From: Catajapyx aquilonaris
Taxonomy: Eukaryota
Length of the DNA: 47,506 nucleotides
Direction of reading: 5' to 3'
Assembly (NCBI GenBank): GCA_000934665.2
Contig: JYFJ02002996.1
Location: 1 to 47,506 of the forward strand
Part shown: positions 3,725-47,200 of the stretch, piece by piece
How the letters are laid out: each line of letters begins with the position of its first letter
How positions within the stretch are numbered: the first letter of the stretch is position 1
The notes under the pieces: model-generated
What the model was told of the DNA's origin: nothing
Seen by the model: only the letters and a program-made list of their open reading frames with translations
The model's database searches: none
Position numbers and translations under genes: made by a program

Positions 3725-4379
3725 AGGACAAACGAATATGCAGGGTGGGGAACAGTGGTCATGTTATTTTTTATCAGGAAGTCCCTGACTATACGCGTGA
3801 GGTTTGTGCAGGCGGCATTGTCATGGTGCAGCAACCAATCTAAAAAAATATATATGTGTTCTTCCACATCTCCGGCCATTTGAGCCTAAATCGTCTCAAA
3901 CCATCCCAGTAGGCCCTAATACTTGCCGTTGACAGTTTTACCAGGAGGGAGAAACTCCATATGCATAATTCCTAAAATGTCAAAGAAAATGATCAGCATT
4001 GAGTTGATTTTGCCGCGAACTTGACGCGCCACCTTCGAAGCTGTTAACCCACTCATATATGTTATTGCTCGTCTTACAACTTGCTTATCAAAAGCCTTGT
4101 TCAGCATTCGGTTGGTTGCATCCGAAGTTTTGTTGAGCTGGAAGCAAAATTTACAAATCTTTTGCTCCCTAACATAAGCGATTTCGAAAAATCGCAGAAT
4201 CACAAGAACACGGTGTCAAGAAAACTGCCGAAACTCGGAAACATGTGCACATATGAAGACGAAATTTTTCAGACTAATAGATGAAAGGTGTACCTAGCGC
4301 CCCCTAACGTCACAAGTCGTACCTCCACTGGATTTCACGGTATATCGACAGTCCGGGAACTTTTTGATCACACCTCGTA
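3725..4379 (-). mobile_element. Decayed, internally deleted mariner (Tc1/mariner) transposon
   Basis: Transposase remnants KICKFCFQLNKT (HTH region), ARQVRGKINSMLIIFFDILGIMHMEFLPPGKTVNGKY and WLLHHDNA...VPHPAYS (mariner HDNA and HPPYSPDL region). One TIR-like end, TACGAGGTGTGATCAAAAAGTTCCCGGAC, at 4379-4351. Confidence 0.9.
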
Positions 4380-4476: not shown

Positions 4477-4547
4477 GGGTGTCACCCCCTTTGAGGGTGG
4501 CACCCGGTGCGGTCCGCACCCCCCGCACCTGCCTAGCGACGCCACTG
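4477..4547 (-). mobile_element. Terminal fragment of a non-autonomous DNA transposon (CAGTGGCGTCGCTAGG end)
   Basis: GC-rich terminus CAGTGGCGTCGCTAGGCAGGTGCGGGGGGTGCGGACCGCACCGGGTGCCACC with an internal dyad (GGGTGTCACCC...GGGTGGCACCC). The partner end is not seen. Confidence 0.5.
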
Positions 4548-6265
4548 CATAACACCCTCCAACTTTTAATATAGCCTACCCTACGTGTGTTTTATTGACA
4601 CTTGGGGTCAATAGGTATGCATTATTTGCAAAATAATGAAAAATATTATTCATATGACATACAGCAAGGGTTATTGTACAGTACATAAGTACACACCTTA
4701 TTGAATTACTACTCTGGTAGCATGAATCCCATCGTCACGATAGTGGTGTACTGTACAGTTTTATGGAAAATACATGCCTGTATCAAATAATTTATTGCTT
4801 AAAACGACGTATTTTAATTTTCACAATATAAAATGAACAGTATAATATATGCTGTGCATAGTTTACTTTAAAGTACTGAGGAAGAAAGGTATGCCCGTTG
4901 TTGTTAATCATGATTGTCCATCTGTTCCTTAATTATTTTTTTCTGTTACGACACGTGAACTATTGCCCTGTTCTGCATATGATCCCTAACTTTTGTGTGC
5001 AGTGTATTCATAAGTAAAATATTACACGGATTTCATAATTGACATTATGAAGTGTATGAGTATGAACACAGGTAGGCACATACTAAATTAATTTACAATC
5101 AAGAGAATAGTACGAATGTCTCAATGGGAAACGATGGGCTGTCAAGAGTCGAACCTATAACAACAAATAAAATGCCTGCAACATAAGTAGACTCTCTTTC
5201 GAGTAGAGTATAGACTATGCTATGGAAAACTATAGACTCCAACCAGAGGGACTGGCAGAGAGAAATGCCGCAGGCGAGCTGTTCAGTGTGGCCCTACCTC
5301 AGGCGGGGTGACAGCAGTTGTGGGCATATATGTGTGCATAGTATAAACAAACATTTTAATCAATTCAAACAACAATATGAAATAATTATATACTCCGTTG
5401 TTATTACAGGGCTCTGTGTAGAGCACCTTTAACAATGGGCTGCAACAATATTAGGGGCAGTTATTGATGTTGTGCATTGAGCTGCTTACTATACTTATTA
5501 AGTGGTTGCTATTAGTAGCCTACAGAGGTTGTTAAAGAATTATTAGTATGTCACAGATACAGCGCACGCCACGTGACTGCATACCCATTGTGCAGGCATG
5601 ATCTGACTTGATTCCAACTCCTCAGTGGGTACTTACCTTTGTCATCTCGCTTAATTTACGACAAACCCATTCCTGTGACATCTTGGCCTCTTTTCAAATC
5701 TTTCAGGGTGCCCATATGGAAATGAGCGAGGATAGGAGTTGCCAGATGTGCAGTACAGAATATAATAGTATGTAAACCACATACCTGCAATTTAATACAG
5801 TATATATCACTTCACTAAAGGTGCCATCTCTGTCTGAACTACAGGTTCCTGTGGGGGAAACTATATGGATACAATAAGAAAGGTGGTAAATTCCTGGAAC
5901 AACTATAACTGTATTCGCTCCTCCATAATATACACCTGATCACTTTTTGTCCCATCCACACATTCAACAAAAAGAAACAACGACAATGCCACGTCATGAA
6001 AGCGCCCGGCCTTTGATTGTCATCGTCCACTGTGTTACAGTATATTAATCCCTCTCTCTTCAAAAAGGCACATCCCTCTCTCAAATAGTCACGCATCGCA
6101 GTAGTACACCAGTCAAACGATGAAAAACTGATTTAACTGAATGGTTATTATAAAACGACAACTAACACGGCGCAGGTGGTGGCAATAATAAGAGTTCAGC
6201 CAGATAATTAGTCGTAGAAAGGCACGCTCAGTAGACGCCACCAGGATGTCTCCGGTGCTGGACTG

Positions 6266-6605
6266 TCACCAGACAGGGTCGCCTAGGTGGGGTTGACGGA
6301 ATCGGTCCGTCCCAGCAGAGGCCGGAGGGGTCATGATCAGGCGTCCATCCGGGACCGCCTTGAAAGGGGATGACCCCCGCCGGTGGATGTGGTGGTGGGG
6401 GTGTTGCTGGTCCGATTGGGGTCGAGAACAGAACCTCATCCTGCCCCCCACCAGAGCTCTGTCGCACTCGGCCTCGCTCAGCTCTCGGCTGCTGTCCAGA
6501 CCCGAGGTGAAGGCGGTCTCCTCTGTGGTCATCGACAGCCCCGGTCCGAGGCCACCCAGACCGATGAGGTACTTCCTCCGAGACGGTGAGTGGCTCCTGC
6601 TGCTG
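6266..6605 (-). CDS. Dscam2: Dscam probable terminal coding exon (...SRELSEAECDRAL...HLGDPVW*)
   Basis: Phase-2 acceptor CCCCCGTTGCAG|C matches the upstream phase-2 donor. Contains the ELSEAECD motif. TGA at 6268-6266. Confidence 0.78.
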
Positions 6606-9600
6606 CTGCAACGGGGGACAACTTTTGACTCGATCGTAGGCACCAATTGCCCCCAGTTCTATTAGTATATGAACGGCCCTAGTCTGGACAGCGCAGGTAA
6701 CTTACCCCACAAGAGCAAGTTACCTCCGCTGTCCAGACTAGCGGTGGTAACTTGCCCGTGGTAATTAACCCCATGGATAAGTTACCTCCGATTTTTGTCC
6801 AGACTGAGGGCCCTTTTGACCTTCTTGTTGTTTACCTGGCGCGTCCCCTTTGCTGTTGCTGTTGGTTCAGGAACATGCGGCGCTCGCTGATTGGGGACGG
6901 CTCCGTTGATGTGCTCGACTCCAGGAGGCCTAGCAGGCGACCTGGAGGCAAGACCCATGACTTTGTGTGGGCGAGCACCATAGTTTAGGAGAAACATGCA
7001 GATAGGTTCACAATATTGTGGAGTAGTTATTTTGATGCTGCTACTGTTAGTGTCAACCTATAGGGTGACCACCTCAGCTGAAGGAGCGCTACTTCATCTG
7101 ATGCAAAGTTATTTAACAGGAACTGATACTACAAGCAATTGTCATGAAGGCTCAAAACATTCTATAAACCATTCTTTCTCTTACAGTTTGCAGCTGAATC
7201 ATACACATACTGCTACTTTCTATAAGGATTTGCATCTCATTAAGTGTTCCTGAAACTGAAATATCGATTGGAAACAGGTGATGAGCTATTAGTGTAAGGT
7301 AGAGTCTTGGGTAGAGTGGAGTGTACAGTGAAGTATGCAGTACTAATTTACAAAATATGATAGAAAATTGCAGATCCTTTGGATGGTTACAACTCAAAGT
7401 TAGTTTGTAATTAGTTACAGTGCTGGTAACTTAACGTGAGATGTGTGTGTCAAGCAGTCACTGTAAACTAATTGGGATTCTTCAAAATTGCTACGTACAG
7501 TACAGTGCGTCTCACAGCACAACCCTGCATGTAATTGCTCTTGTGCCATAATTGCAAGCTTCGCATAACTGACACTTATGAAAATTATGATCACTTCTTG
7601 TTGCAATGCCGCAGTCTACTACAGTAGTTACAGCTAAAATGATCCTAATTTCGCATTATTGTTGTGTCGAGGAATTCGGGTTGGTGTGAAGTTTCCTGAG
7701 TCTTTTTATTGGTACCGTAAAATTCATTAAGGCATTTCTAAATACCCATTATTAGCTAAATGTTTGAAATGCAGATAACAATATAATATTGCACGGAAAA
7801 AATATAGTAAACTAACCAAGTAATGTGGATTATTGTGACCCGTTATATGTGATGCTGTGATAGCGAGCCTACCAGGCACTGAGGGATAATAAACTGCATA
7901 CTGTATATTGTGTAAACCTATCACATATAACACAATGATATTGTTATTTGTATATTATGAAGCATAAACCTACCACTGCAATTGAAGACCTCGGGGGAAG
8001 AAAGACCAAAGTCCACTTTTTGCCAAAAATGAGTTACATATCTCAGAAGATACTTTCCCTAGAGTAGAATATGATGCTTTGGTCGTGGTTGTGGAGTAAT
8101 GATCATAGGTCACTATGGAAGGCCCTGAAATTGGGAATTACAATGGGCCCTCAAAATTTAAAATTAGATTATCTCAGTTTCACAAGAGGTGGACCTTGAT
8201 CGTTTTTCTCCAGAGGTGTTCAATTATCATAAGCTAAGTTGGAAATGTAAGCAGTTGCAGGAGTATATGCTTATTCTCACAGTTGAAATCAATATTAATA
8301 TCTACCTCAGAGACACACGTGTTCCCAAAGATACTCTACAGGTGGTCACCCTAAAATGTCGACTGATTATTTATTAGTGCAGCTGCCAGAAGATGTGACA
8401 GTGGTATAGTAGTTGTGGCGTGCAGAAGTCGAAGGCGGAGTCAGAAACGGACAGCGGGACTCACACTATTGCATTCACTCGCTCCCAATAAGAAAGAAAG
8501 ATATACATGGCATGCAGGTGGTGAGTGCAACAGTGAAAGTGATGTGTATTCGAGAGGTAAACAAGGCAAAGAGTGATAAGAATTCCGAGGAGCTGTCACC
8601 TACCTGCACACCCGCAAGTCCCGTTTCCCGTTTTTTTCCGTACTTGTCGCAACGTGTCTGGTGTTTAAAGAGTCCGAAACTTTTTTTTGTTCTTTTTTTC
8701 TGATATATATATTTTTTGCTGCATTTTTTTGCTAGCTAGTATTTGGCTACAAACTTACTGTGGTGAATGTTACTCTGAGTGTAGGATTGGGAACTGGAAG
8801 ACTTGTCTCGAGTCCCCCCGCCTCCCCCGCGGAGGTCCTCAAGTTGGTTGGAAGATTCGGTTCGGCTCGAAGTCCCATGTTCTGTGTCTGAGTCGGAGCC
8901 TAGCGAGTCGTACTCTTCGCTTTCCGAGCGAAACGACTTGCGCTTCGGGCTCTTCGTTTTTCTCACATGGCAGTACTCATCTGTGTCTAGCTAGAAGGAA
9001 AGAAGGTGACGCGGTCTCCTTAGTTCCCTCTCCTCTCAAATTCAATATTGATGAACTCTGCTCCAGACCCTCAAATTGATCCAAAAATTTTGCAATATGT
9101 AGGCTAATGAGTTTGGAAGAGAGCTCTACAATGTCTGATTCATAAAACATTCGGCGTACCGTGCGACACGCCATGGTCTCTGGGTCCCGTTTCATGGAGT
9201 CGTGGAACAGGAACGTCTGGAACGCTTTCTGTCGCGAAGGTGTCTCTGGGTTCTTCTGCACTTGGAATGTTGCGTATGGGTAGATGTCATCGCCATATTC
9301 TTGAGGAGAAAAATTTCTATTGTAATTAAAATTTTCCTACCACCCCCAAACGGGTTGTGATCATTATAAACCAATATGGCCACGTACTTTATAATATTAG
9401 TCGTCGTGAGTGCGATTATGCAAATAAGGCGATAACGTTAAAAAAAATCTCGTCTAACCATTAATTCCTGATTAGCAGCATTCTCATAATGGAACCTGGG
9501 GAACTTGCCAAATGATTACTTAAAACAGGGCTCCCTAAAAGCCATCCATTAATGACTCTAGTGCCTGCTTTTGGCACCAACTGCAAAGTTGAAACTTGGT

Positions 9601-12600
9601 GAAAATGCCGTACCCGAATGTAAAGGCAACATCTCTGTCTCTATGTTCAGATCATAATAAAATATTGTCTTGTCACCTCTCGAACACCTAGTTACCTGGG
9701 ATTCTTTCCAGAGTGTCTGATACAACTGGCGGAGGAGGAACGTTCTTGTGCATGGCTGCATAGAACTGCTCACGCTGCTCCATGTTTTGTTTATTCTCAA
9801 GGGTCACGCTGGGTTGAGACTCTTGAGATGTGACGCCATTGCGGGTTGGTTCTGAAAGTTTAAAAAACCTGTTAGTAAAAAAATGCCGGACTTAAAACTG
9901 AGGTTGTCAAATTCAAAACATGTCCTGTCAATATGCATCAATTAAATTTTGGGACAAGTTCCAGAAAGTGACACCTCAGTTCATGTGTGACGTACTCCTC
10001 CTCCAGCAAATAATGACGGTCACAAAGGTCAGCACGACGGCAATGACGGACGCTGCGATGGGCAGGGTGATCCGAAGATCACTGAAGAAGGACTGCTGCT
10101 GAGTTGTTTCAGCAACAATGTCAACTGGAGGCGCACTAGTAGCACCGGCAGTTGACAATGTACGTGCGGAGTAAATGTTCACACTGGACCCGGCCGAGTT
10201 TTCAGCAGACACCCGTACATCATAATTGGTCATTGGTTGCAGGGAAGTGATTGTGAACACCTTTGCTGACTTGCTGCTTCCGACTGTCTTCCAGTCCTCG
10301 TCTGTTCCCAGCCGGTATCCCACTGTGAAGGTCGTGATTGGACACCCGCCGTCTTGCCACCGTTGTAGGTCGATGGCTATTGAGTCCACATTCGGTACCA
10401 GGAATTCAGTCTGGTCCTCCGGTGGCACTGGCTTTGATCCCAGTGTCTTTGCGTTGACTACAGCACTGGCACCGCCCATGCCAATGCGGTTGTACGCGGA
10501 GACATAAAAATAGTAGAGTGCACCGCACACTAAATCTTTAACAACACAGGACGACTCGAGGTGACCCAATCTCACTTCTTCCCATTCACCAAACTCCCGT
10601 TTGTAGTTCAGGCTGTAGCCAGACACAGGAGAACCACCGTCATCTGCCACGTTCCACTCAAGTTGGACTGAATTGGTCTCGATCGTCTTCACAGTGACAA
10701 TCGGCGAAGATGGCGGCACTTGCACCACTATGGTGTGCACTACTTGGTCGCTTCCATGTGCGTTACGCACTACACACGTGTAGTTACCTGCGTCAGATTT
10801 TTGCACCGTTTGTATTCTCAAGGTGCCATTTGACAGCACGCGTGTACGCTCAGAGGTGACCAGTCTCCGGTTGTCATACGTCCAACTGACATCCGGAGTG
10901 GGCGTGCCGACCGAGAGACACGGAAGCGACACTTCCGTCTTCCATGGAAAGGTGTGCTTGCTGTCAAATGACAGTATAGCCGCCGGTACTGTAAGATAAA
11001 TCAAGCATGAATATTTACAGCCCTGAATTCGCAATTAGGCAAGTACTCACCTCTTTGGTTAGGAACCAACGTGGCCACAGGTGTGCTCGGTCCCTCCCCA
11101 ATCTTGGTTGATGCCGTCACCCAAAACTCATATGTATGAAACGGCTCCAGGTTGGTCGCCTCGTACTGGGTATGCACAACAGGTATGCTCTTCCTCAACG
11201 TGTTGGCCTCCTTTCCTTTATGCAACACCCGGCCATAAATATTGAACTTAACCAACTCTCCATTGGGATGTCTTGGTGGTGCCCAGCTCACGATGGCCGA
11301 TCTAGGTGAGCTCAAAACCGCTTTCACATTCGAAGGCGCCTCAGGCACTACACACATAATGGACAGTTCAGTACCCTCGTTTTGATTAAGCAATCTTTTT
11401 TTCCAGAAATAACCTTACCATCCTCTTCCGTGACACACCAAATAGGCTCGCTCTTAATCCCATCTCCAACCTGTGTGAACGACACCACCTGGATGCTGTA
11501 GTTAGCGTGCTTCCTCAATCCATGAAGAATGGTCGTCTTGGCAGAGGTCACCTTAGTCTCGGTATCCACCGTACCTGCCGAGGATGCAAAAAAAACGAGT
11601 ATAAAAAAGTCCTTCCTGCAATTAGATTTTCAAAACGGACTTGCTCTCACCGGAAACTGTTTCCACAGTCTCGTAGAAGACCTTATACCCTTCGATAATT
11701 CCGTTTCGTTCTTCCTCCGGAGGCGGCTCCCACGAGACCTGAACACTTTGAGACGTCAGAGCGATGCATTTGACCTCTTGAGGAGAAGCTGATGGGACTG
11801 GAAGGAGAAAGAAAACGATCGAAACACTTCTCGGGGATATATACTGGAAGACAAGAGTCCGACGGTAAATGATAACCTCTGGCCACACTCTACATGCATA
11901 AATGCAAATTTTACTCCCGATTTTTTTTGTCTCTTTCTCGCTCAGTCTGCCATGATGGATGGCTGGAAACGAGCTGTGGTACTCTTGGGAAAAAGAGCTG
12001 CTCCTCCCGCGTCATAGTTTATCAATCCTTCCAAGGATTACAAATGGAACTGGAGGGGTTGAGCTACAATCCGACTATAAATCCCCGAGTTCGATTTAGC
12101 ATAAAACTGAAAACGGGGAGGGAGGAGTGAGCCGTTTGTTATGACGTCCCACTCTCAAAGCTCTCTAGGAAAAAAAACTAGTGAATGCCTCTGGAGACAT
12201 GCAGTCAATGCTATGGCGCTCTGGTTCCTAAAAGTGGATTCAGCCACTGACTACTGAAACATTTTTTCCTCCTTCTTTTGTAGGAATATACTCACTGCTT
12301 TCAAGAGTCTCGGCCAGCACCTCGTCGCTGATTGGCCCAGCACCTTTCGGGTTGAAGGCCTGCACCACAAAGCCGTACTTTGTGTAGCTCTTCAGGTTCT
12401 GGAAAAGCCATTCTTCCTGCTTTTCCTGAGCTGCAGGCACGGTGGTGAAGTTGTAGGCTCCGGCTTTGTTCTTCCTGAGAGGTCCAGATAAGAAAAAGGG
12501 GTGGAAGGGAAAAGGAATGAGTCGCGACTGCACCACGTTCCCCTACCAAGAGATTTATGAAACCCCGAGGGACACTCTGGAGTGAAAAACAACTCCGGCC

Positions 12601-29211: not shown

Positions 29212-29268
<57 letters not shown>

Positions 29269-38200: not shown

Positions 38201-41200
38201 TGTACTGTACAGTCATTCAGTTACAGACAGATGATGACCTTACCTTGTGACCTCCTCCAGGCTATTCTTGGAGGCGGGAATCCGTCAGCTTGGCAATGCA
38301 GTGAGATGGTGGAACCCAAGATGGCACTTCGGTCTCTTGGCTCCAGCATCCATTGGGGCGGCACTGTAAGGCAGGCAAATCGATGGGTGGGGCACTTCCT
38401 TCGTTCCAACCACCCGACGAATATTTTAGAGAACGGTTTAAAGGGATGGGGGAGGATAGCAGGCACTCGTGGTGCTTTGCAGAGTTAATTGAGAAAGAGG
38501 ACAGCTAAAAGGGAGGTGGGATTTGGTGAGGTGGAGGGGGGGGGGGCGACAATTCAATTGCTTTAGGCTCAATTAGAAGGAGCTGTGTCCCTTCTATTAA
38601 CTGGTCTTTAGGGGGTAATGCACGGCTAGATCAGATTTGGTGACTGGCACTGCACAAAAATAAGGGAAATGTCACCTCCTTACTCTTAAAGGGCAGAGGG
38701 AAAAAATGTTATGGCGGACCGTACGACTACTCTCGTTCTGCCTAAGGCACTTAAGATAACACCAAATGCGTCAGATACAGGGAGGGAAAGAATAGGGACA
38801 AAAAAATTAATGTCCTGCCAGACCGGACGTCTTCACTGCACTCTTTTGTGCTTTAACATCACACTTTTTTGTGTGTCCAAAGTGCGGGTGGAAGACATGC
38901 GGCTCTGGCAGTCATAAACCCCACTTTTAAATCTACCCTACTGTATATAATAATAATAAAAAAACTTAAAAATCAAATGGGCATAACGCATGCAATGTTA
39001 GTGACTAGTGGATGCAAGGTATGTACGTATGTTCACTACAATAAATTGTATGGACACGTGTTGGTCTTTTGGAGTGTAAAGGCTTCGTGCACCAAGGGTC
39101 TACTGTGCTTTGTGCAATCCCCCTATCTGGTAAATGTTCTAATAGTAAGCTTTTGTAGAGCATTCTCAGCCCGTAAAGCGCATTCCAGCAATAAGCATAT
39201 ATACTTGCATTTAAAAAAATAAAGCCAGGATATCATTTGCATGCCCGGGTTGGATTGAACACTATCCGTACACCGCCTCTCTTGATTCGTTATCTTCCGG
39301 AACGCGACTAATGGCATTTTTAATAAACAACTCGCGGTACGGCCATATCCTAACACTCGTTCGGTTAAACTGCTGGAAATAATGCGGGCATTGCCCGTTG
39401 ATAGCCGCTGGCAAACGTTACAATTACATTAATTCGGCCATGTAAATTACTATTTCAGCCAGAAAGTTACCATCGCAGTCTATTCCGGGTACTTGCGTTG
39501 AATTAGATCTCGCAGCAGCAAACGACTATTAAACTATAACGACCTTAATTGGACTTGAGTACCCGTACATTAAAACTGTAATTTTCAAGTCCCCCTTTTT
39601 TTGTTTTGTGACCTGTCTCCAAGAAAGGCCCATTCATCTCTTGGCACCTGGTACAACACACAAATAAATAAAAGCCCCACGTCTCTTCTTGCATGGAGGC
39701 TGGGAGTGCCTGCGACACCCTATATAACTATCAGCCAGAAGCCAAAGTGACCTTTCTGGCTCTATTCTGGGGGACCGCAGGAAGCCAATTTCGGCAGGGC
39801 TATGAAAGTCCATTACAGGAGGGCCTGAGTTAGGTTTCGGGGAGGCTTCGTACAACGCCTCGTCTGCCCAGCTCGCTCCAAATATTGGCGATTTCTATTC
39901 ACTGGGGGAAGGCGAGCGAATGGTAAATGAAGCCGTTGCCGACTCCATTGAATCGGCCTCTGCCAACTTTTTTTTTTTTTTGCGTGAAACCATAACGTAT
40001 CCATATATATACAACATGGCCGCATATCTCAGGTATATACCCCTAGGGCTTGGGGAAGCCAGCTTTTCATACCGGGGCATGTAAATACCCAGACAGGAAG
40101 ACAAGATAAGCGGGGGGTGGAGATAGGTTCGCTTTTCATGCAGGAGTTGGAGTAGAGGAAATAAAGCTATGCATGCAGAGTGCATTTGGGGGTGGGATTC
40201 TTTTCATATATATATTTTTTAGAGAGAAAGAGAGAAACGTAACGAGTTACAGAAACTCCCAACCACCCAGTTTCATGTGTGAGCACCGCTTGTTGTGCGT
40301 TGTATTTAGTATATAGGTCGCCCGGTCTTTTTTGTCCGTTTGCATGGTTCCTACAAGTGTGATGTGATCACATGACCTGATTTGATATTTTTTTATTATG
40401 CAATATATTTAATTGGAATCGGGCGTTTGCTTGTTTCTGCGTATTTGGAGTTTGGAGGTAAACTACTGTTTGGGAGGAGTGCGATGGAGTTGGTAGAGGA
40501 AAATGAGGGTATCATGCTGGAAAATGTTGGTGAAGGAATGGGGTGAAACAACACACCAAAAGAAGGACACAAATTCGAACACTGGGAATGGTGTAGGGGG
40601 TTAAAACACACAGGTGCACACACTACTGTGCAATGCGTGACGTTTGAGGCAAAGGTGGGCGTGTATGGAAGTGAGGAGGTCACCTGACGTAAAGGCCGTA
40701 ACAGAAAAATAGAAACCGAGCCGGAAAGAAGGACCAAGAAAGGAATGTTATTTAGGGCTGGCGAAGGGTTAAGAAAATGAACGAAAACAGGAAGACACGA
40801 CGTGACTACAGAGAAAGCGACTCAGAGAGATATTATATACAGTATAAAGAGATAGTTATAGATATAGAGAGATAGATAGATAGAGAGCTACAGTAGTGGA
40901 GTACGTTACCACTGATTTTCAACTGTGCAGTGTAGGCAACCTCCCGTGCTGGATTGCGTGCTACGCAAGTGTAGTTCCCATTGTGAACAGGTGAAACGCT
41001 ATTGATGGTGAAAATGCTAGAGTATGTGTTGAAGTCTGTGATGTGAATGTTGTTGTGCTGCGAAGAGTGAAGGGGTTGCGAGTCTTTCATCCAGGTAATC
41101 GTGAGGGGCAGATCCCCGTGCGGCACAATGCACTGCACTTGCACACGTGCACCCTCGGTTAAGTCTTGGAAAGTGAAAGGTGTTATCTCAGGCGGCACTG

Positions 41201-44200
41201 AAAGGTGTATGTAGAAAAAGAAAAAATGTTGTGAGGCATATAAAAATATAGTGCATGGGACACTGCATGGAGTAACTACAGTCAAGTTTCCGGTGCATCA
41301 AGCTGTATAATATACAGTATAATATATAATAGGGGGCCCAATAAAAAAAGAAATAAAGTGACAAGAAAAAAGTCAGAGCTAAAGGCAAGGGGTGTTGACA
41401 AATAAATAATTGTATGTATATAATTATATATAATATATATACGTAGTAGCAACACGAGGGCATATCACACGTTACCATTCACCGACAGCTGAACAGAGTG
41501 TGAAGCTGTGGCTGCATTGTTACGAGCAGTGCACGTGTATGTGCCACTGTGCACCGTGGTCAGATTTTCGATCATGAGCGTGCTGGAATATTCGCCCAAA
41601 CTTTTCACGACAACATCCGGGACTCCTTCCATCGCCTGCTCATCCTTATACCACTCAATGAAGAGAGGAGGATCGCCCTTGGTGACAATGCATTGCAGGT
41701 AGATCCTCTCTCCGAGGTGCAGGTTGTTTTGAATCGTAAAGGGATAAATGCTGGGCGGCTCTGAAAGTAAGTAAAGAGAAAGGCCCTCGTGCATACACAA
41801 ACACTTGTTACCCCACATTTCATTCAGTCCTCCTTAGAAAGAAACCGAAAAAAAGTCCCCCAAGCCTTTGCTCAGTCGGCACTCACTATACTCCGGCGCA
41901 GCTTGTAGTCTCCTAGCAGTAGATTAGTCGAGTTTGTAAAGAAACTTTTTTTTCTGAGACGGCATGCTGCACGGGCGGAGAAGGTAACTTTCTTTTACAG
42001 CTTCCCACCACTTGGCTAACCAGCAGGGTTAGGCCATGCTATAAACATGTTTGTCTTTTTCTCAGCACAGGAGCGTCTAACGTTTACTTCCAATCGATAG
42101 ACCCCGACCACACAACACTTTGTTTTACCAGGAGCCAATAGCAGTGCTGGTGCAATGACATTGTTTTCCATTATTTTAGCAAATGTGTTCGGGCCACAAA
42201 TGTATCACCCATTCATTATACGTGGGGCTGCGTACATTCCGGTGCAACAAACCGTTTCTGTACAAACTGGACTCAAACAAACTGGAAAATAAACAGGCTA
42301 CATTATGTTTACCTTACTCGTAATGACTCTACATTACACGTCCGCCGTATCTGTCACAAGAGTAAATACATGCCCATAATGTCCACAAGGCTAGTGACAG
42401 AATCGGCGGCAACATTGACATTACATGAACAAGCAGCATCAGAGCGCCAATTATATTATACACATTACGATATTTTACTGCAGTAAATGCGGATCTTGCC
42501 TTGTACACCATAATATTTCCATTGGTGTGATACAAAATTATGCGGTTTGATCCGAAAGTTACCGCAATATCAGGATTGTTTATTCTAGCAATATTCGCTT
42601 GTGGTCGTCACTTCTCTGGAATAAACAATCCGCAAATTTTTCCCTCTCTTGGACTGCGACTTGGGCAGAGCTTTTTCTCCACAGTGAACTCGCTGGAGAC
42701 CTTTCAACACCAACCATCTCCGTCAATTTGACCGTGAAACCCTAGTTAATCAGCCTCAAAACGGCAGACTTTCCCGTCTCCACATAACCGTCAAGCCCAA
42801 AGTCGTCATCACTCTAACAAGAAACCGTGGGTCTTACTTGCTCCTGCTTTCAAATGGCCCGCGTCAGTAGTAGTAATAACACTGGAGAGACTTAGTCCTT
42901 TTAAGTGACGGAGACAAAGTAATGGAGATGATGAGAACCGGAAGCACTCATAGTCGCCCCAATCAAGTGTCCCACACCTGCAAGCACCATCAGTTTGAGC
43001 TATTAAGCGCCACGAACCGCTCGTTAGTTTGGACAAGGCAGAGGCCTCTCCTCGAAGCCACAATTCCCACTCGGAGCGTCGTATGTCATGGCAGACAATG
43101 ACGGAAATTGTCTTATCATCCGGGACGCGACCCCCCCTTTTGGTTAAAGGTTGTGGTCCCGGAAACTTCCAGTTCCATAAAAACCAATACCGGCAACTCT
43201 GCCAATATTGACAGCAAGATGTCTGCCGGAAATGGGCCAGATTGCCAGATAAATTTTGGGGGGGTTGGCACATGTGGCCAAAAACTGGTGGCAAGAAACA
43301 AGCCGCAACGAATCAATAGGTGATGAGTCGTTAACTTCTAATACGACCCTATACCCACACTAATTTAGAGTTTAGATTTGGAAGCGATAATCGGTGTGCG
43401 GTTGCAAACTGTAATGGAAACCATTCCAATTACGTTTCAAAAAAGACGCTTAGTTTCCGAATTTATAGCCAATCCTCACTCACTCTGTAACAGTCGATAA
43501 AAACGTAATGATCAAACCACAATGATAACGATTGGATGCAGACTCTAGGGAGGGAAGCGAGATTATCCATTAGCAATTGTTATTCAAACATTCCCGCAAT
43601 CGTGCCAGGATTTGATATCCAAAAAAAACTAGAGAAGGGCGAGAGAAAGAAGGAAAAAAGGATAAAAGATTCTCAGGGATCTGAACTGCTTCCAGAGGCC
43701 TACCAATTTCGGTTAGGCGAGATTAAATGGCGCCAAGGCTCGTTCAATTCTCTTCTTCTGTCTTTACAGATCTCATTTTGGAGAGAGCAGGGCTCGCTCT
43801 TTTTCCAAGAGACAATTCTTATATGAGATGGGTATCCCTTCTCTCACTTTTTTTCTTTCCTTCTCAAGCAGACGCGATTAATAAAGAAAATCCTAGAAAT
43901 TTGTAAGTTCCCGAAAGATAGGTTACAGCCTCATAAATATACCGGCGGTCATTTTCCGCGACGCAAATTAGACGTCCTTTTGCACAACTGACGTGCAATA
44001 ATTTCTTTTTAGGGACTAGGTATTTTCAAAAAAAAAAGGCTTGCTCGACTCCCACAATCCATCTTCCGTAAGCGTTTACTTTTCTCCTGACGTAAATCCA
44101 ATATCTCCATCTGACTTACGGCTTAATGTTCATGCAAACGGCCTATTGTCATTCTGACACACACACAAAAAAAGAGCGCGGTACGGACCATCTGGGACAT

Positions 44201-47200
44201 CTCTTGAGTCGCTATTCATGCATGCCTTGTACTTGAGAACATTTCGATACAAATAGGGCGAGCTCGAACTAGACGCGACCCGCTGCGACTCGAGACAAAG
44301 ATGAACGACGTTGGATATGAAATTAATCGTTTCTTTTCAGTTTAGGATCAAGGTGACAAATTGCTCCGTCGAGTCGAGTCAAGAAAAGAGGGGGAGCGAA
44401 AAACTCGAAAATTCCTTTTTGAAAAAAAATAATAGTTCCGGACGAAATGCACTTTGATCATTAAAGGCTTAAAAAATTGTGGCGGAAAGTGTTAGTGAAG
44501 ACATCAAGTTGGCTTGTTGAGTAATAGACTCACCCATGATTGCCACATCGACACTACCACGTGCTGCGTGTCCCTGTCGGTTTCGAGCCTCGCATGTGTA
44601 CGTCCCTTTGTCCACCTTTTGCTGGACGTTCTGAATGGCCAGAGTTCCGTTCTTGGACACTCTCTGGCGATGATTGACCGGAAGCTGTCGGGCATCTGGA
44701 AATAAACATGTCAACTACATTTACCAGAACGAAAAAAATGCATAAATGTCACAAAAATATTATTACGGACAAGCATAAAATTCACAAGAGAGGGACAGTG
44801 TGGGTATGATTCACTCATTGTTTTTCATGTGGTTTGACGTCAATGTGACAAGGCTCAGCACTCTCAGTAGTCTGAAAGTGGGTCAGGTAGCCCGGACCTA
44901 TACACATACTTTCCTATTTATACTGTAAGAGATATGATAAAAAAATGTTAAATTTCGAAGCACTTTCACCACAGCTCTGGTTTTTCTGAGACATGCTGTA
45001 CGCGAAGATATTGTCGCCTAGTGTAATGATTGATTGCGGAGAATAATGTGGTTTAGTGATGAGCTCTCGTTTACCCGACGGATTAATCGACTTGAGAGGC
45101 CGAACGTGATAATGGAACCGGCGTTGGTGAGCATCAATTGACGGATTAAACAGCTTGGCAATTTCCTTTACGCGCTTGCAAGCGACGGTTTTTGTAATTG
45201 GGGAATGAAGGGAGGAAGGCCTGCAAGAATGCCTGAACAGTTACTTGGTCAGTTAGTGTAATGAGTGCTCACATGGTCGAAAATCCTCGACAGACTTGAC
45301 GCCTGGCAAATGAGAGCGCAATTTCCTCGCCCAAACACAAGGTCGGTCCCCCGCAAGCGTTGGCTGTTTTCACTGTCCCCCCCTGCTACTACAGTACCCT
45401 CTCTCTGGGTTCCAAACTCGTTTAATTCCCAGCCTAGGATTGAGGCCAGATTGAAGGCGGTCCGAACACTCCTTGCCAACAACGGCTCAATATATGCAGT
45501 CCAGTAATCAGCTGGTGGGGACCTGTTAGTTAGCGCACTACTTCACAATTTCCGCAAAATCTAGTTACCTACATGAAGTTCGCATATTCAGCCCGGACCT
45601 GCAGGACGTGCTGCAGAAGCTAATCTTAAGTTCATAATGGTGTACTGTCCACGAGTAAAAACTTGGTCTGGGATTTGGTCAATTTGTACGCGAATAGCTC
45701 AACCTTGAGCTCAACCATATACCCATCAACAATCCGCGATATAATAAATTACCGCGGATTTAAAAGTCACTCAAATTGGCGGGACGAATTGGGCGTGGCC
45801 TAAAAGGCGCATTCCCACTCATGCCTGACCACAGTGACGTCAGCAGACCAGCTTTACTGGCTCAACATGGTAAACACACAGTTTAAAAACATGCAGTTTT
45901 ATCCCTCAAAAAATGTGGCACGATAAGACGCAGCTATCTTTGGTAGGCGAGGATGGCATCGAGGGGCCCGTTTGTCTGGTTGACATACCGCAGTAGGGGT
46001 CCTGATACTGGAGCCTCGTCACGTGCACCGAGCTCGTTTCCATGGATGAGCTTTGCTCCTGGTTTACACCTAAGGGCAGCATCCAAACGCCGGGAATGGA
46101 CACAGGACTTGCCACTTAGTGATTATGACATGGACATTGCGGGGCCCCACATTTCTCGTTAAAGTGGTCCCGAAAAGTGATAAAATTTGCTGCACACGTG
46201 CTGCTCGTCAATGGACCACCATATACTGGTGGGTGCAGTATTGAAACGACGTGTTTGACGCCCCTCGGTGCCTGCAACTCCCCAGCTACTCATCTCTCTC
46301 GGACCCCCACCAAATAGTGTTGTGCAAACTTGTATAACCAGGCACGAGCCTACCATTGTGGCCGGCTAATTATGCTCAAAGTGCGAACATGCCGCGTACA
46401 GATAACCGGCTAGCAAACTTTCCCTTCGGAAATGGTTAGGCCTTATAAGTAAGAAAGGCGTCCCCTTTAATATGTCCATGATGTCGCGGAAATGCAATCA
46501 TATTTCAGGACCGCTACGGCTCCGGACTTACTTAGCCAGCATTTGCATTCCAATAGGACACAAGGCTCGTAATTGGAGGGGGGGCTGCTGCAATAAGTAG
46601 AGAGTTGGGCATCGTCCATTTAATTCCATTCCGTCCCTAGGGCGCGTCCATGTAAGTGCTATTTGCCTGTAGCAGTAGCTACAGGACAAGGTGCGATTTT
46701 ATAATTTCACTAAAAACAGCGCACTTTATTCAATACGCATAGTGTCCTATAGGTAGGACACTTGTGCAAATGTTACATTTTTGGTTAAATTACTAGTGAA
46801 CCAGGTGACAAATCAGTATGACACTGACAATCAAACAACTTGAATGAGATGGCCTGCCGATTTACCATGTAGTACTATTATTTACTCACATATGGCGCAT
46901 ATTCCCTTTGCACACTCAGGTCGGACAAACATCCGACGGAAAGAACAAGCCGATTAGGATAAATATGTTATTTCTTCATTCGTTAATAAAATTGCTATTT
47001 CTTCATTAGTTAATAAAATTGCTATTTCTTCATTAGTTAATAAAATTGCTATTTCTTCATTCGTTAATAAAATTGCTATTTCTTCATTCGTTAATAAAAT
47101 TGCTATTTCTTCATTCGTTAATAAAATTGTTATTATTTCTTCATTTGTTAATAAAAATTTTAAAAGTTAAAAAGAGTCAGCTGTTGATTGAAGTTTGGTC

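Follow-up and report, generated by a model that had tools for sequence, protein, structure and literature searches.

Tandem Ig7 exons in a Dscam-family gene

Here, we describe a nerve-cell adhesion gene of the Dscam family in Catajapyx aquilonaris and, within it, two tandem exons, designated A and B, each of which encodes the whole of immunoglobulin (Ig) domain 7. The gene lies on the minus strand of a 47,506-nucleotide (nt) stretch of contig JYFJ02002996.1, which was analysed at its full length and is referred to as the window. The Dscam2-like protein of the damselfly Ischnura maps collinearly onto this strand, from Ig6 at position 44696 to the C-terminus near 8745, and the exons from the second half of Ig6 to the C-terminus follow the canonical Dscam order of Ig and FNIII domains, with Ig1 to the first half of Ig6 falling outside the window. 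Both exons of this Dscam-family gene are intact and under selection. The A type is named for the upstream copy in Drosophila Dscam2, and the B type corresponds to the downstream copy. The pair and its surroundings are laid out as follows (a slash marks the exon-intron boundary):

44534..44695, minus strand: second half of Ig6, a constitutive exon located by tblastn with Ischnura proteins; last base G, phase 1, donor gtgagt (the start, ~44695, is inferred from a ccag acceptor)
41761..44533, minus strand: intron between Ig6 and exon A; 2773 nt, GT..AG
41476..41760, minus strand: exon A, a whole Ig7 domain of A type; 285 nt, phase 1-1, donor G/gtaacgt
41198..41475, minus strand: intron between exons A and B; 278 nt, AT-rich, 33% GC
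40910..41197, minus strand: exon B, a whole Ig7 domain of B type; 288 nt, phase 1-1, donor G/gtaacgt
38364..40909, minus strand: intron between exon B and Ig8; 2546 nt, GT..AG
38244..38363, minus strand: first exon of Ig8, the common acceptor for A or B; 120 nt, phase 1-1, acceptor cttacag

An earlier reading of this DNA from its letters alone (hereafter, the sequence-only reading) had described two Ig7 exons of 285 and 288 nt, both of phase 1-1, lying 278 nt apart and sharing about 39 of about 96 residues. Both the reading of the minus strand and BLASTP (39/96 identities, 41%, E 7e-25) confirm this description, and the shared donor G/gtaacgt and acceptor core ctttcag are likewise present. The pair had also been placed between single Ig6 and Ig8 exons; the flanking positions, 44534 and 38363, proved right, but neither flank is single, since both Ig6 and Ig8 are encoded by two exons apiece.

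Each exon is preceded by an acceptor ending in ctttcag, begins with two bases that complete its first codon, contributes one base to the codon at its end, and has an open translation. Both products match Pfam Ig_3 and I-set (E 1e-15 to 4e-17), and each is predicted to fold as a confident Ig domain, with a predicted local distance difference test score (pLDDT) of 93.4 for A and 89.6 for B. Over their full length, both align to Ig7 (residues 619-710) of the eight-Ig structure of Dscam1, 3dmk, and the structures of isolated Ig7, 4wvr and 4x5l, also align end to end with A and B. A relaxed tblastn search found no third Ig7-like copy in the window. The junction codon is GAG (E) between Ig6 and A and GTG (V) between Ig6 and B, with GTG also formed when A is joined to B or Ig6 directly to Ig8; all of these are sense codons, and the frame is kept in all four combinations, namely, A only, B only, A+B, and neither. 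Tandem homologous exons of similar length and the same phase, bounded by GT-AG sites, fit the splicing of each exon to both flanks.

The matching splice cores of the pair are located at 41761-41767 and 41198-41204 (acceptors, ctttcag) and at 41469-41475 and 40903-40909 (donors, gtaacgt). Both donors read GTAACG and have no G at +5, a base found in 5/8 of the other donors in the window (GTGAGT, GTAAGG, GTGAGT, GTAATT, GTAAGG, GTATGA, GTAAGG, and GTACGC). Such weak donors fit regulated exons. Separately, we note at 41351-41380 on the minus strand a ctgac that resembles a branch point, with a long pyrimidine tract after it, ~100 nt past the A donor and far upstream of the B acceptor.

Conservation, age, and kinship of the two exons

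Clear orthologues of both A and B are found in the genes of a mayfly, a dragonfly, a damselfly, a katydid, a termite, and a cockroach, at 57-75% identity. For exon A, the orthologues from Ephemera, Ischnura, Hetaerina, and Ladona are 72-74% identical, and for exon B, the corresponding values are 71-75%. The best matches are models from the mayfly (A 74%, B 71%) and the dragonfly (A 73%, B 75%), each with an A-like domain followed by a B-like one, and the same A-then-B order is present in the models of Ephemera, Ladona, Anabrus, Cryptotermes, and Zootermopsis. Compared to the damselfly orthologue, exons A and B are 72-75% identical, versus 47% over 898 constant columns and 47-63% for individual constant exons, making A and B the best-conserved part of the gene. 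The analysis shows strong purifying selection on each exon. Decay of one of the two exons into a relic that is out of use is extremely improbable, considering that both frames are open, the GT-AG sites are intact, both products have confident predicted Ig folds, and their identity to the orthologues from other insect orders (71-75%) is above that of the constant exons.

To place the gene, we used a FastTree phylogeny of the constant region, built from ~1000 residues after Ig7 (62 rows, 993 columns). The window gene falls into a clade (support 100) with the genes of Hetaerina, Ischnura, Anabrus, Periplaneta, Cryptotermes, and Zootermopsis and is sister to all other members of this clade. The lineage comprising Drosophila setifemur, Tenebrio, Formica, Leptopilina, Rhodnius, and Cloeon constitutes a separate clade (100). 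The D. setifemur protein P0047 and its lineage were taken as Dscam2 proper on the grounds of their two Ig7 copies, because in Drosophila, only Dscam2 has two Ig7 exons (PMC3364881, PMC5465998). On this tree, the window gene is thus assigned to a paralogue lineage separate from Drosophila Dscam2 and is not its strict orthologue.

Trees of the Ig7 domains themselves group the exons by type. Window A belongs to a clade of 8 orthologues with a Shimodaira-Hasegawa-like approximate likelihood ratio test (SH-aLRT) support of 99, and window B to another clade of 8 (SH-aLRT 97). Beyond the orthologues, the upstream copies of several paralogue lineages are united in one clade (93-94) and the downstream copies in another (80-87). 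Of the two D. setifemur copies, the first falls with window A in the A-type clade (SH-aLRT 93-94); the second joins window B under the mixture model (SH-aLRT 80) and, in the other Ig7 tree, forms a clade of its own beside the B-type clade (87). The sequence-only reading had proposed a tree of this kind for distinguishing orthology from independent duplication; the Dscam2-type copies of D. setifemur do group by A or B type, but the gene that harbors the window pair is, as described above, not a strict Dscam2 orthologue. Constraining the copies of each gene to group together in six gene lineages, which were defined on the constant-region tree, is rejected in an approximately unbiased (AU) test (difference in log-likelihood, delta lnL, 70; p-AU 0.007; LG+G4).

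By these comparisons, the A/B pair is certainly older than the divergence of this organism from mayflies, Odonata, and Polyneoptera. Because the A-type and B-type exons of several paralogues cluster by type, the pair probably predates the paralogues as well. No statement that several paralogues share an A/B pair was found in the literature searched, most subscription journals being outside the search.

Isoform use in relatives

For isoform typing, the members of the 90% clusters were listed and their Ig7 content was typed; the RefSeq models among them are database models only. The orthologous gene is represented by 11 RefSeq models, 3 of which contain A only, 4 B only, 3 both exons, and 1 neither. 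In Ischnura elegans, residues 648-741 of model X1 correspond to the A orthologue and residues 648-742 of X2 to the B orthologue, and the junction residues, E for A and V for B, are the same as in the window. Similarly, A and B are carried, respectively, by X2 and X1 of Hetaerina americana (X3 having neither) and by X3 and X4 of Zootermopsis nevadensis (X1 and X2 having both). B alone is found in the Periplaneta model, and both exons in the Anabrus model. The same mix of isoforms is found in paralogues, in Cloeon, Zootermopsis (g2), Tenebrio, and Leptopilina. The A-only and B-only models support alternative use of the two exons in the orthologues, and the A+B and skipped models suggest that the exclusivity may be leaky. 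The two-isoform switch posited in the sequence-only reading is thus backed by A-only and B-only RefSeq isoforms in orthologues, but given the models with both exons or neither, strict exclusivity is not established.

The three isoforms of the single Hetaerina gene (P0018, P0131, and P0133) are named either Dscam2-like (X2) or Dscam1-like (X1 and X3), depending only on the Ig7 exon. Because isoforms of one gene receive different names, automatic Dscam names are no guide to orthology.

The same models bear on two alternatives. First, A and B could be loosely coupled cassette exons, with A-only, B-only, A+B (11-Ig), and neither (9-Ig) products all made in meaningful amounts. All four combinations are in frame, and the RefSeq models of the orthologues, 3 with both exons and 1 with neither beside 3 A-only and 4 B-only, together with the like mix in paralogues, are consistent with such an arrangement. 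However, models generated automatically often string the two alternative exons together with no reads to back this, and the strong conservation of each type over several insect orders fits two receptors with a single Ig7 each. Furthermore, in Drosophila Dscam2, reverse transcription PCR (RT-PCR) across exons 9-11 gave a one-exon product only and no skipped product (PMC6357765). Loose coupling therefore appears to us an unlikely explanation. Second, both exons could always be spliced in, so that the receptor would have two consecutive Ig7-like domains. Although both exons are in frame, have good acceptors with long pyrimidine tracts, and occur together in the gene models of several relatives, Ischnura and Hetaerina, which are the closest RefSeq orthologues, have no A+B model and carry A or B at one position. 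In addition, both donors are weakened, as is typical of regulated exons, and the A/B arrangement is homologous to the pair proven exclusive in Drosophila. We regard constitutive double inclusion as quite improbable.

The exon pair in termite-like loci

Scanning of metagenome contigs with the B-exon alignment yielded 7 loci that are 82-89% identical to the Zootermopsis orthologue and apparently represent termite host DNA. Both A and B are present in 5/7 loci and the full context in 2/7, and the exons run Ig6 - A - B - Ig8 as far as each contig extends. The two termite exons measure 291 and 276 nt, both multiples of three, and are separated by a gap of ~1160 nt. Their donors, G/gtaccg (A) and G/gtaact (B), have no G at +5 and agree at 6/8 positions, and the acceptors of A and B both end in cattgcag. 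The positions of these sites in one of the loci are:

L004, near 4540-4550, 5990-6000, 4839-4846, and 6274-6281: splice cores of termite exons A and B

Thus, the splice cores of A and B are alike inside each taxon, yet they differ between the window and the termite loci. In the sequence-only reading, the shared cores had been taken as a sign of whole-exon duplication. This interpretation does not hold: because the duplication is ancient, predating the split from Odonata, mayflies, and Polyneoptera, the likeness of the cores is not a relic of it. Instead, the likeness may reflect matched site strength or local conversion.

Two further features of the intron between A and B were observed. In the termite loci, its first 110 nt and last 170 nt are almost invariant and its middle is variable. 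UGCAC units occur just upstream of exon B, with six in the last ~110 nt of the termite intron (L004:5890-6000) and two upstream of window exon B (41230-41300, minus strand).

What can and cannot enforce exclusivity

Several simple devices can be discounted as enforcers of exclusivity. A frameshift leading to nonsense-mediated decay (NMD) is ruled out, as both exon lengths (285 and 288 nt) are divisible by three and no junction codon is a stop; the earlier contention that NMD cannot enforce exclusivity and that an active mechanism is needed is, in this respect, upheld. Steric hindrance is ruled out by the length of the intron between A and B, 278 nt here and ~1160 nt in the termite loci, considering that the minimum spliceable intron is roughly 50-60 nt. 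Incompatibility of U2 and U12 splice sites is also ruled out, because A and B share GT-AG sites (gtaacg...ctttcag). With frame, intron length, and splice-site class all excluded, exclusivity must come from regulation. A local hairpin that hides the 3' splice site of exon B was considered and rejected as well, with folding z-scores of -0.44 (window) and -0.77 (termite locus L004).

One regulator of such a choice is known from Drosophila, where Muscleblind (Mbl) represses Dscam2 exon 10A and selects 10B, with its binding sites being unmapped (PMC6357765). A further candidate for the regulation is RNA pairing of the docking-site/selector type, for which the introns of the window contain the following elements:

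41306..41319, minus strand: candidate selector downstream of exon A; transcript sequence TACTGTATATTATA, 156 nt from the A donor
40831..40844, minus strand: candidate selector downstream of exon B; transcript sequence TACTGTATATAATA, 65 nt from the B donor
38939..38952, minus strand: candidate docking site, the window's sole reverse complement of both selectors, lying in the intron preceding Ig8 at 588 nt from its 3' end

With at most 1 mismatch, the motif TACTGTATATWATA has 3 matches on both strands of the 47.5 kb window, one after A, one after B, and one inverted, compared to 0.03 expected; three matches were reached in 0/100 shuffles. The resulting layout is that of the docking-site/selector systems, with one selector beside each variant and one site complementary to both. 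By chance, such selector/docking triples arose in 4/1000 dinucleotide shuffles and in 4/532 mock layouts of real window sequence. Pairing of the B selector with the docking site is predicted at -20.0 kcal/mol, which ranks 4/897 among intron windows.

The 14-nt inverted pair (38939, 40844) could, in principle, derive from a transposon. This origin was rejected, since five open reading frames (ORFs) of the intron between B and Ig8 gave no transposase domain at E <=0.01, and it is further disfavoured by the repeat ending at 14 nt and having no flanking TA duplication. A non-autonomous element is a possible source of the pair.

The selector motif of the window is not present in the termite loci. 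An analogous triple is found there, with AATTTACAAA located 169 nt after A and 371-378 nt after B and its complement 404-413 nt after B. Shuffled sequences gave such a triple in 0/200 and 2/200 cases (10 nt exact) and in 11-12/200 cases (11 nt, one mismatch), with none at 12 nt. The termite B repeat and its complement also constitute a local 19-bp AU-rich hairpin, ~375-430 nt after B (L004:6646-6704, and the same place in L001-L003 and L005-L007), the arms of which are invariant and the loop variable among five haplotypes. The recurrence of the layout with unrelated sequence in two distant taxa is suggestive. No RNA-pairing model of Dscam2 was found in the literature searched, which left most subscription journals aside. 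We tentatively consider it possible, although doubtful, that the candidate selector/docking pairing controls the exon choice.

A probable regulated choice between two ancient Ig7 versions

Collectively, these results make it likely that the Ig7 exon of a Dscam-like adhesion receptor exists in two ancient versions, A and B, that are used alternatively, with the exclusivity imposed by regulation. Relatives have annotated isoforms with one exon or the other, and we infer such use for this species. In most mature mRNAs, Ig6 would be followed by either A or B and then by Ig8, so that two receptors differing only in Ig7 would result. The most likely route would involve weak donors, given that neither A nor B has a +5 G in two distant taxa, acting together with cell-type-specific splicing factors, in a manner analogous to the control of fly Dscam2 10A/10B by Muscleblind. 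Competing RNA pairing may help, in that the repeat after either exon could pair with the one complementary site that lies in the downstream intron. If the A repeat is bound to the docking site, exon B would be looped out; if the B repeat is bound, the B donor would come close to Ig8.

Ig7 in both Dscam1 and Dscam2 is a determinant of isoform-specific homophilic binding. Of the columns in the orthologue set (8 A + 8 B), 25 are conserved with one residue common to A and B, and another 13, while conserved within A and within B, distinguish the two types. Ig7 of Dscam1 dimerises through its ABED face (PMC4928987), and the type-specific residues show a trend toward this face, which is in the expected direction and not significant.

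Several results weigh against the interpretation presented above or against parts of it. Gene models with both A and B exist in relatives, including Zootermopsis X1 and X2 and Anabrus in RefSeq, and Ephemera, Ladona, and Cryptotermes outside it, and the Hetaerina X3 model has neither exon. When applied to lineage 1 alone, the AU test does not reject a within-lineage origin of A and B (p 0.111). Mbl-type YGCY motifs are not enriched around A and B, with 1.0-2.0 per 100 nt versus 1.31 gene-wide, and their density appears to give Muscleblind control no support either way. Type-specific columns make up 8/18 on strands A, B, E, and D versus 2/10 on A', C, C', F, and G (p 0.25). As for the RNA pairing, it is AU-rich and weak for A (-13.1 kcal/mol for the A selector with the docking site, rank 49/897 intron windows), its motif was defined post hoc, after the pattern had been seen, and the termite elements differ from those of the window in both sequence and geometry. 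Finally, covariation in the termite hairpin amounts to 1 compensatory pair only, and 208/500 shuffles reach the observed score.

A broader scenario can be put forward with considerable reservation. The A/B pair might be older than the insect Dscam-like family, with at least 5-6 paralogue lineages, including those of Drosophila Dscam2 and of the window gene, inheriting the A-type and B-type exons. In that case, the two-state Ig7 recognition code would be an ancestral and widespread feature, with a loss in Drosophila Dscam3 and Dscam4, and the exon choice in the lineage of the window gene may use a downstream docking site that is contacted by the repeat after each exon. We suspect that this combination as a whole is less likely to be true than false.

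Other features of the window

Toward the 3' end of the gene, one long exon of ~1.4 kb (9985-11360, minus strand) seems to encode the 3' part of the ectodomain and is adjoined by very short introns; the 5' exons, in contrast to this region, are widely spaced. A remnant of a mariner-type transposase (Pfam Transposase_1, E 3.8e-6) is located downstream of the gene, at 3916-4215 on the minus strand. The window further contains a tandem repeat at 46961-47156, with a 27-nt unit in 7.1 copies (94% matches) and an open frame on both strands, as well as a perfect (AG)25 microsatellite at 29214-29263, in the intron between Ig8 and Ig9. Rfam gave 0 matches at gathering thresholds over the whole window.

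Comparison with known systems

The kind of splice switch described here is already familiar: it is known in flies and water fleas, and RefSeq already annotates A/B isoforms in damselflies and a termite. The genes of Ischnura, Hetaerina, and Zootermopsis are direct orthologues of the window gene (clade 100) and have A-only and B-only isoforms at the same residues, with junctions E and V. Honeybee AbsCAM reportedly has Ig7A and Ig7B splice variants (Funada et al. 2007); it is a Dscam-like paralogue of another lineage, the Hymenoptera group in our trees.

Like the window gene, Drosophila Dscam2 has two tandem exons, 10A and 10B, each of which encodes a whole Ig7. [quoted passage not shown] Unlike in the window, where Mbl-type motifs are not enriched, the choice in Dscam2 is controlled by Mbl, and the two genes belong to different paralogue clades. 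The same two-Ig7-exon device is found in Dscam-L2 of Daphnia pulex and D. melanogaster, for which two alternative Ig7 exons are given in the legend of Figure 8 of the respective paper (PMC4244043).

Duplicated Ig7 exons are also encountered in the exon 9 cluster of Dscam1 (Dscam-hv), in Strigamia, and in chelicerate arrays, but these are larger arrays or 5' cassettes, and the Dscam1 exon-9 and myriapod rows fall outside the A-type and B-type clades in the Ig7 trees. Duplication of the Ig7 exon, or of its orthologue, has been described in all arthropods examined by Yue et al. (PMC4835542), and in Strigamia, 2-5 Ig7 copies are reported in 40 Dscam genes (PMC4244043). The statements on the literature made in the sequence-only reading, namely, that Dscam2 has two Ig7 exons and that Ig7 duplicates occur in myriapods (Strigamia) and chelicerates, are accordingly borne out.

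With regard to regulation, docking-site/selector systems are characterized by a repeat for each alternative exon and a single complementary site in the intron (PMC6071210, PMC7797038). The candidate layout in the window is similar to that of the Dscam1 clusters and of Ate1 7a/7b, which is a two-exon case, and to the duplication model of Ivanov and Pervouchine. Unlike in those systems, the helices here are short and AU-rich, their sequence is not conserved between the two taxa, and the candidate was derived from sequence alone.

Taken alone, the window leaves existing knowledge unchanged. It adds to the systems listed above a distant, well-conserved case in a second paralogue lineage and, because of the 278-nt intron, the matched weak donors, and the simple candidate RNA pairing, offers a compact minigene substrate. 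Comparison of such exon pairs across paralogues, from Drosophila Dscam2 to the lineage of the window gene, could show the age of the two-state code.

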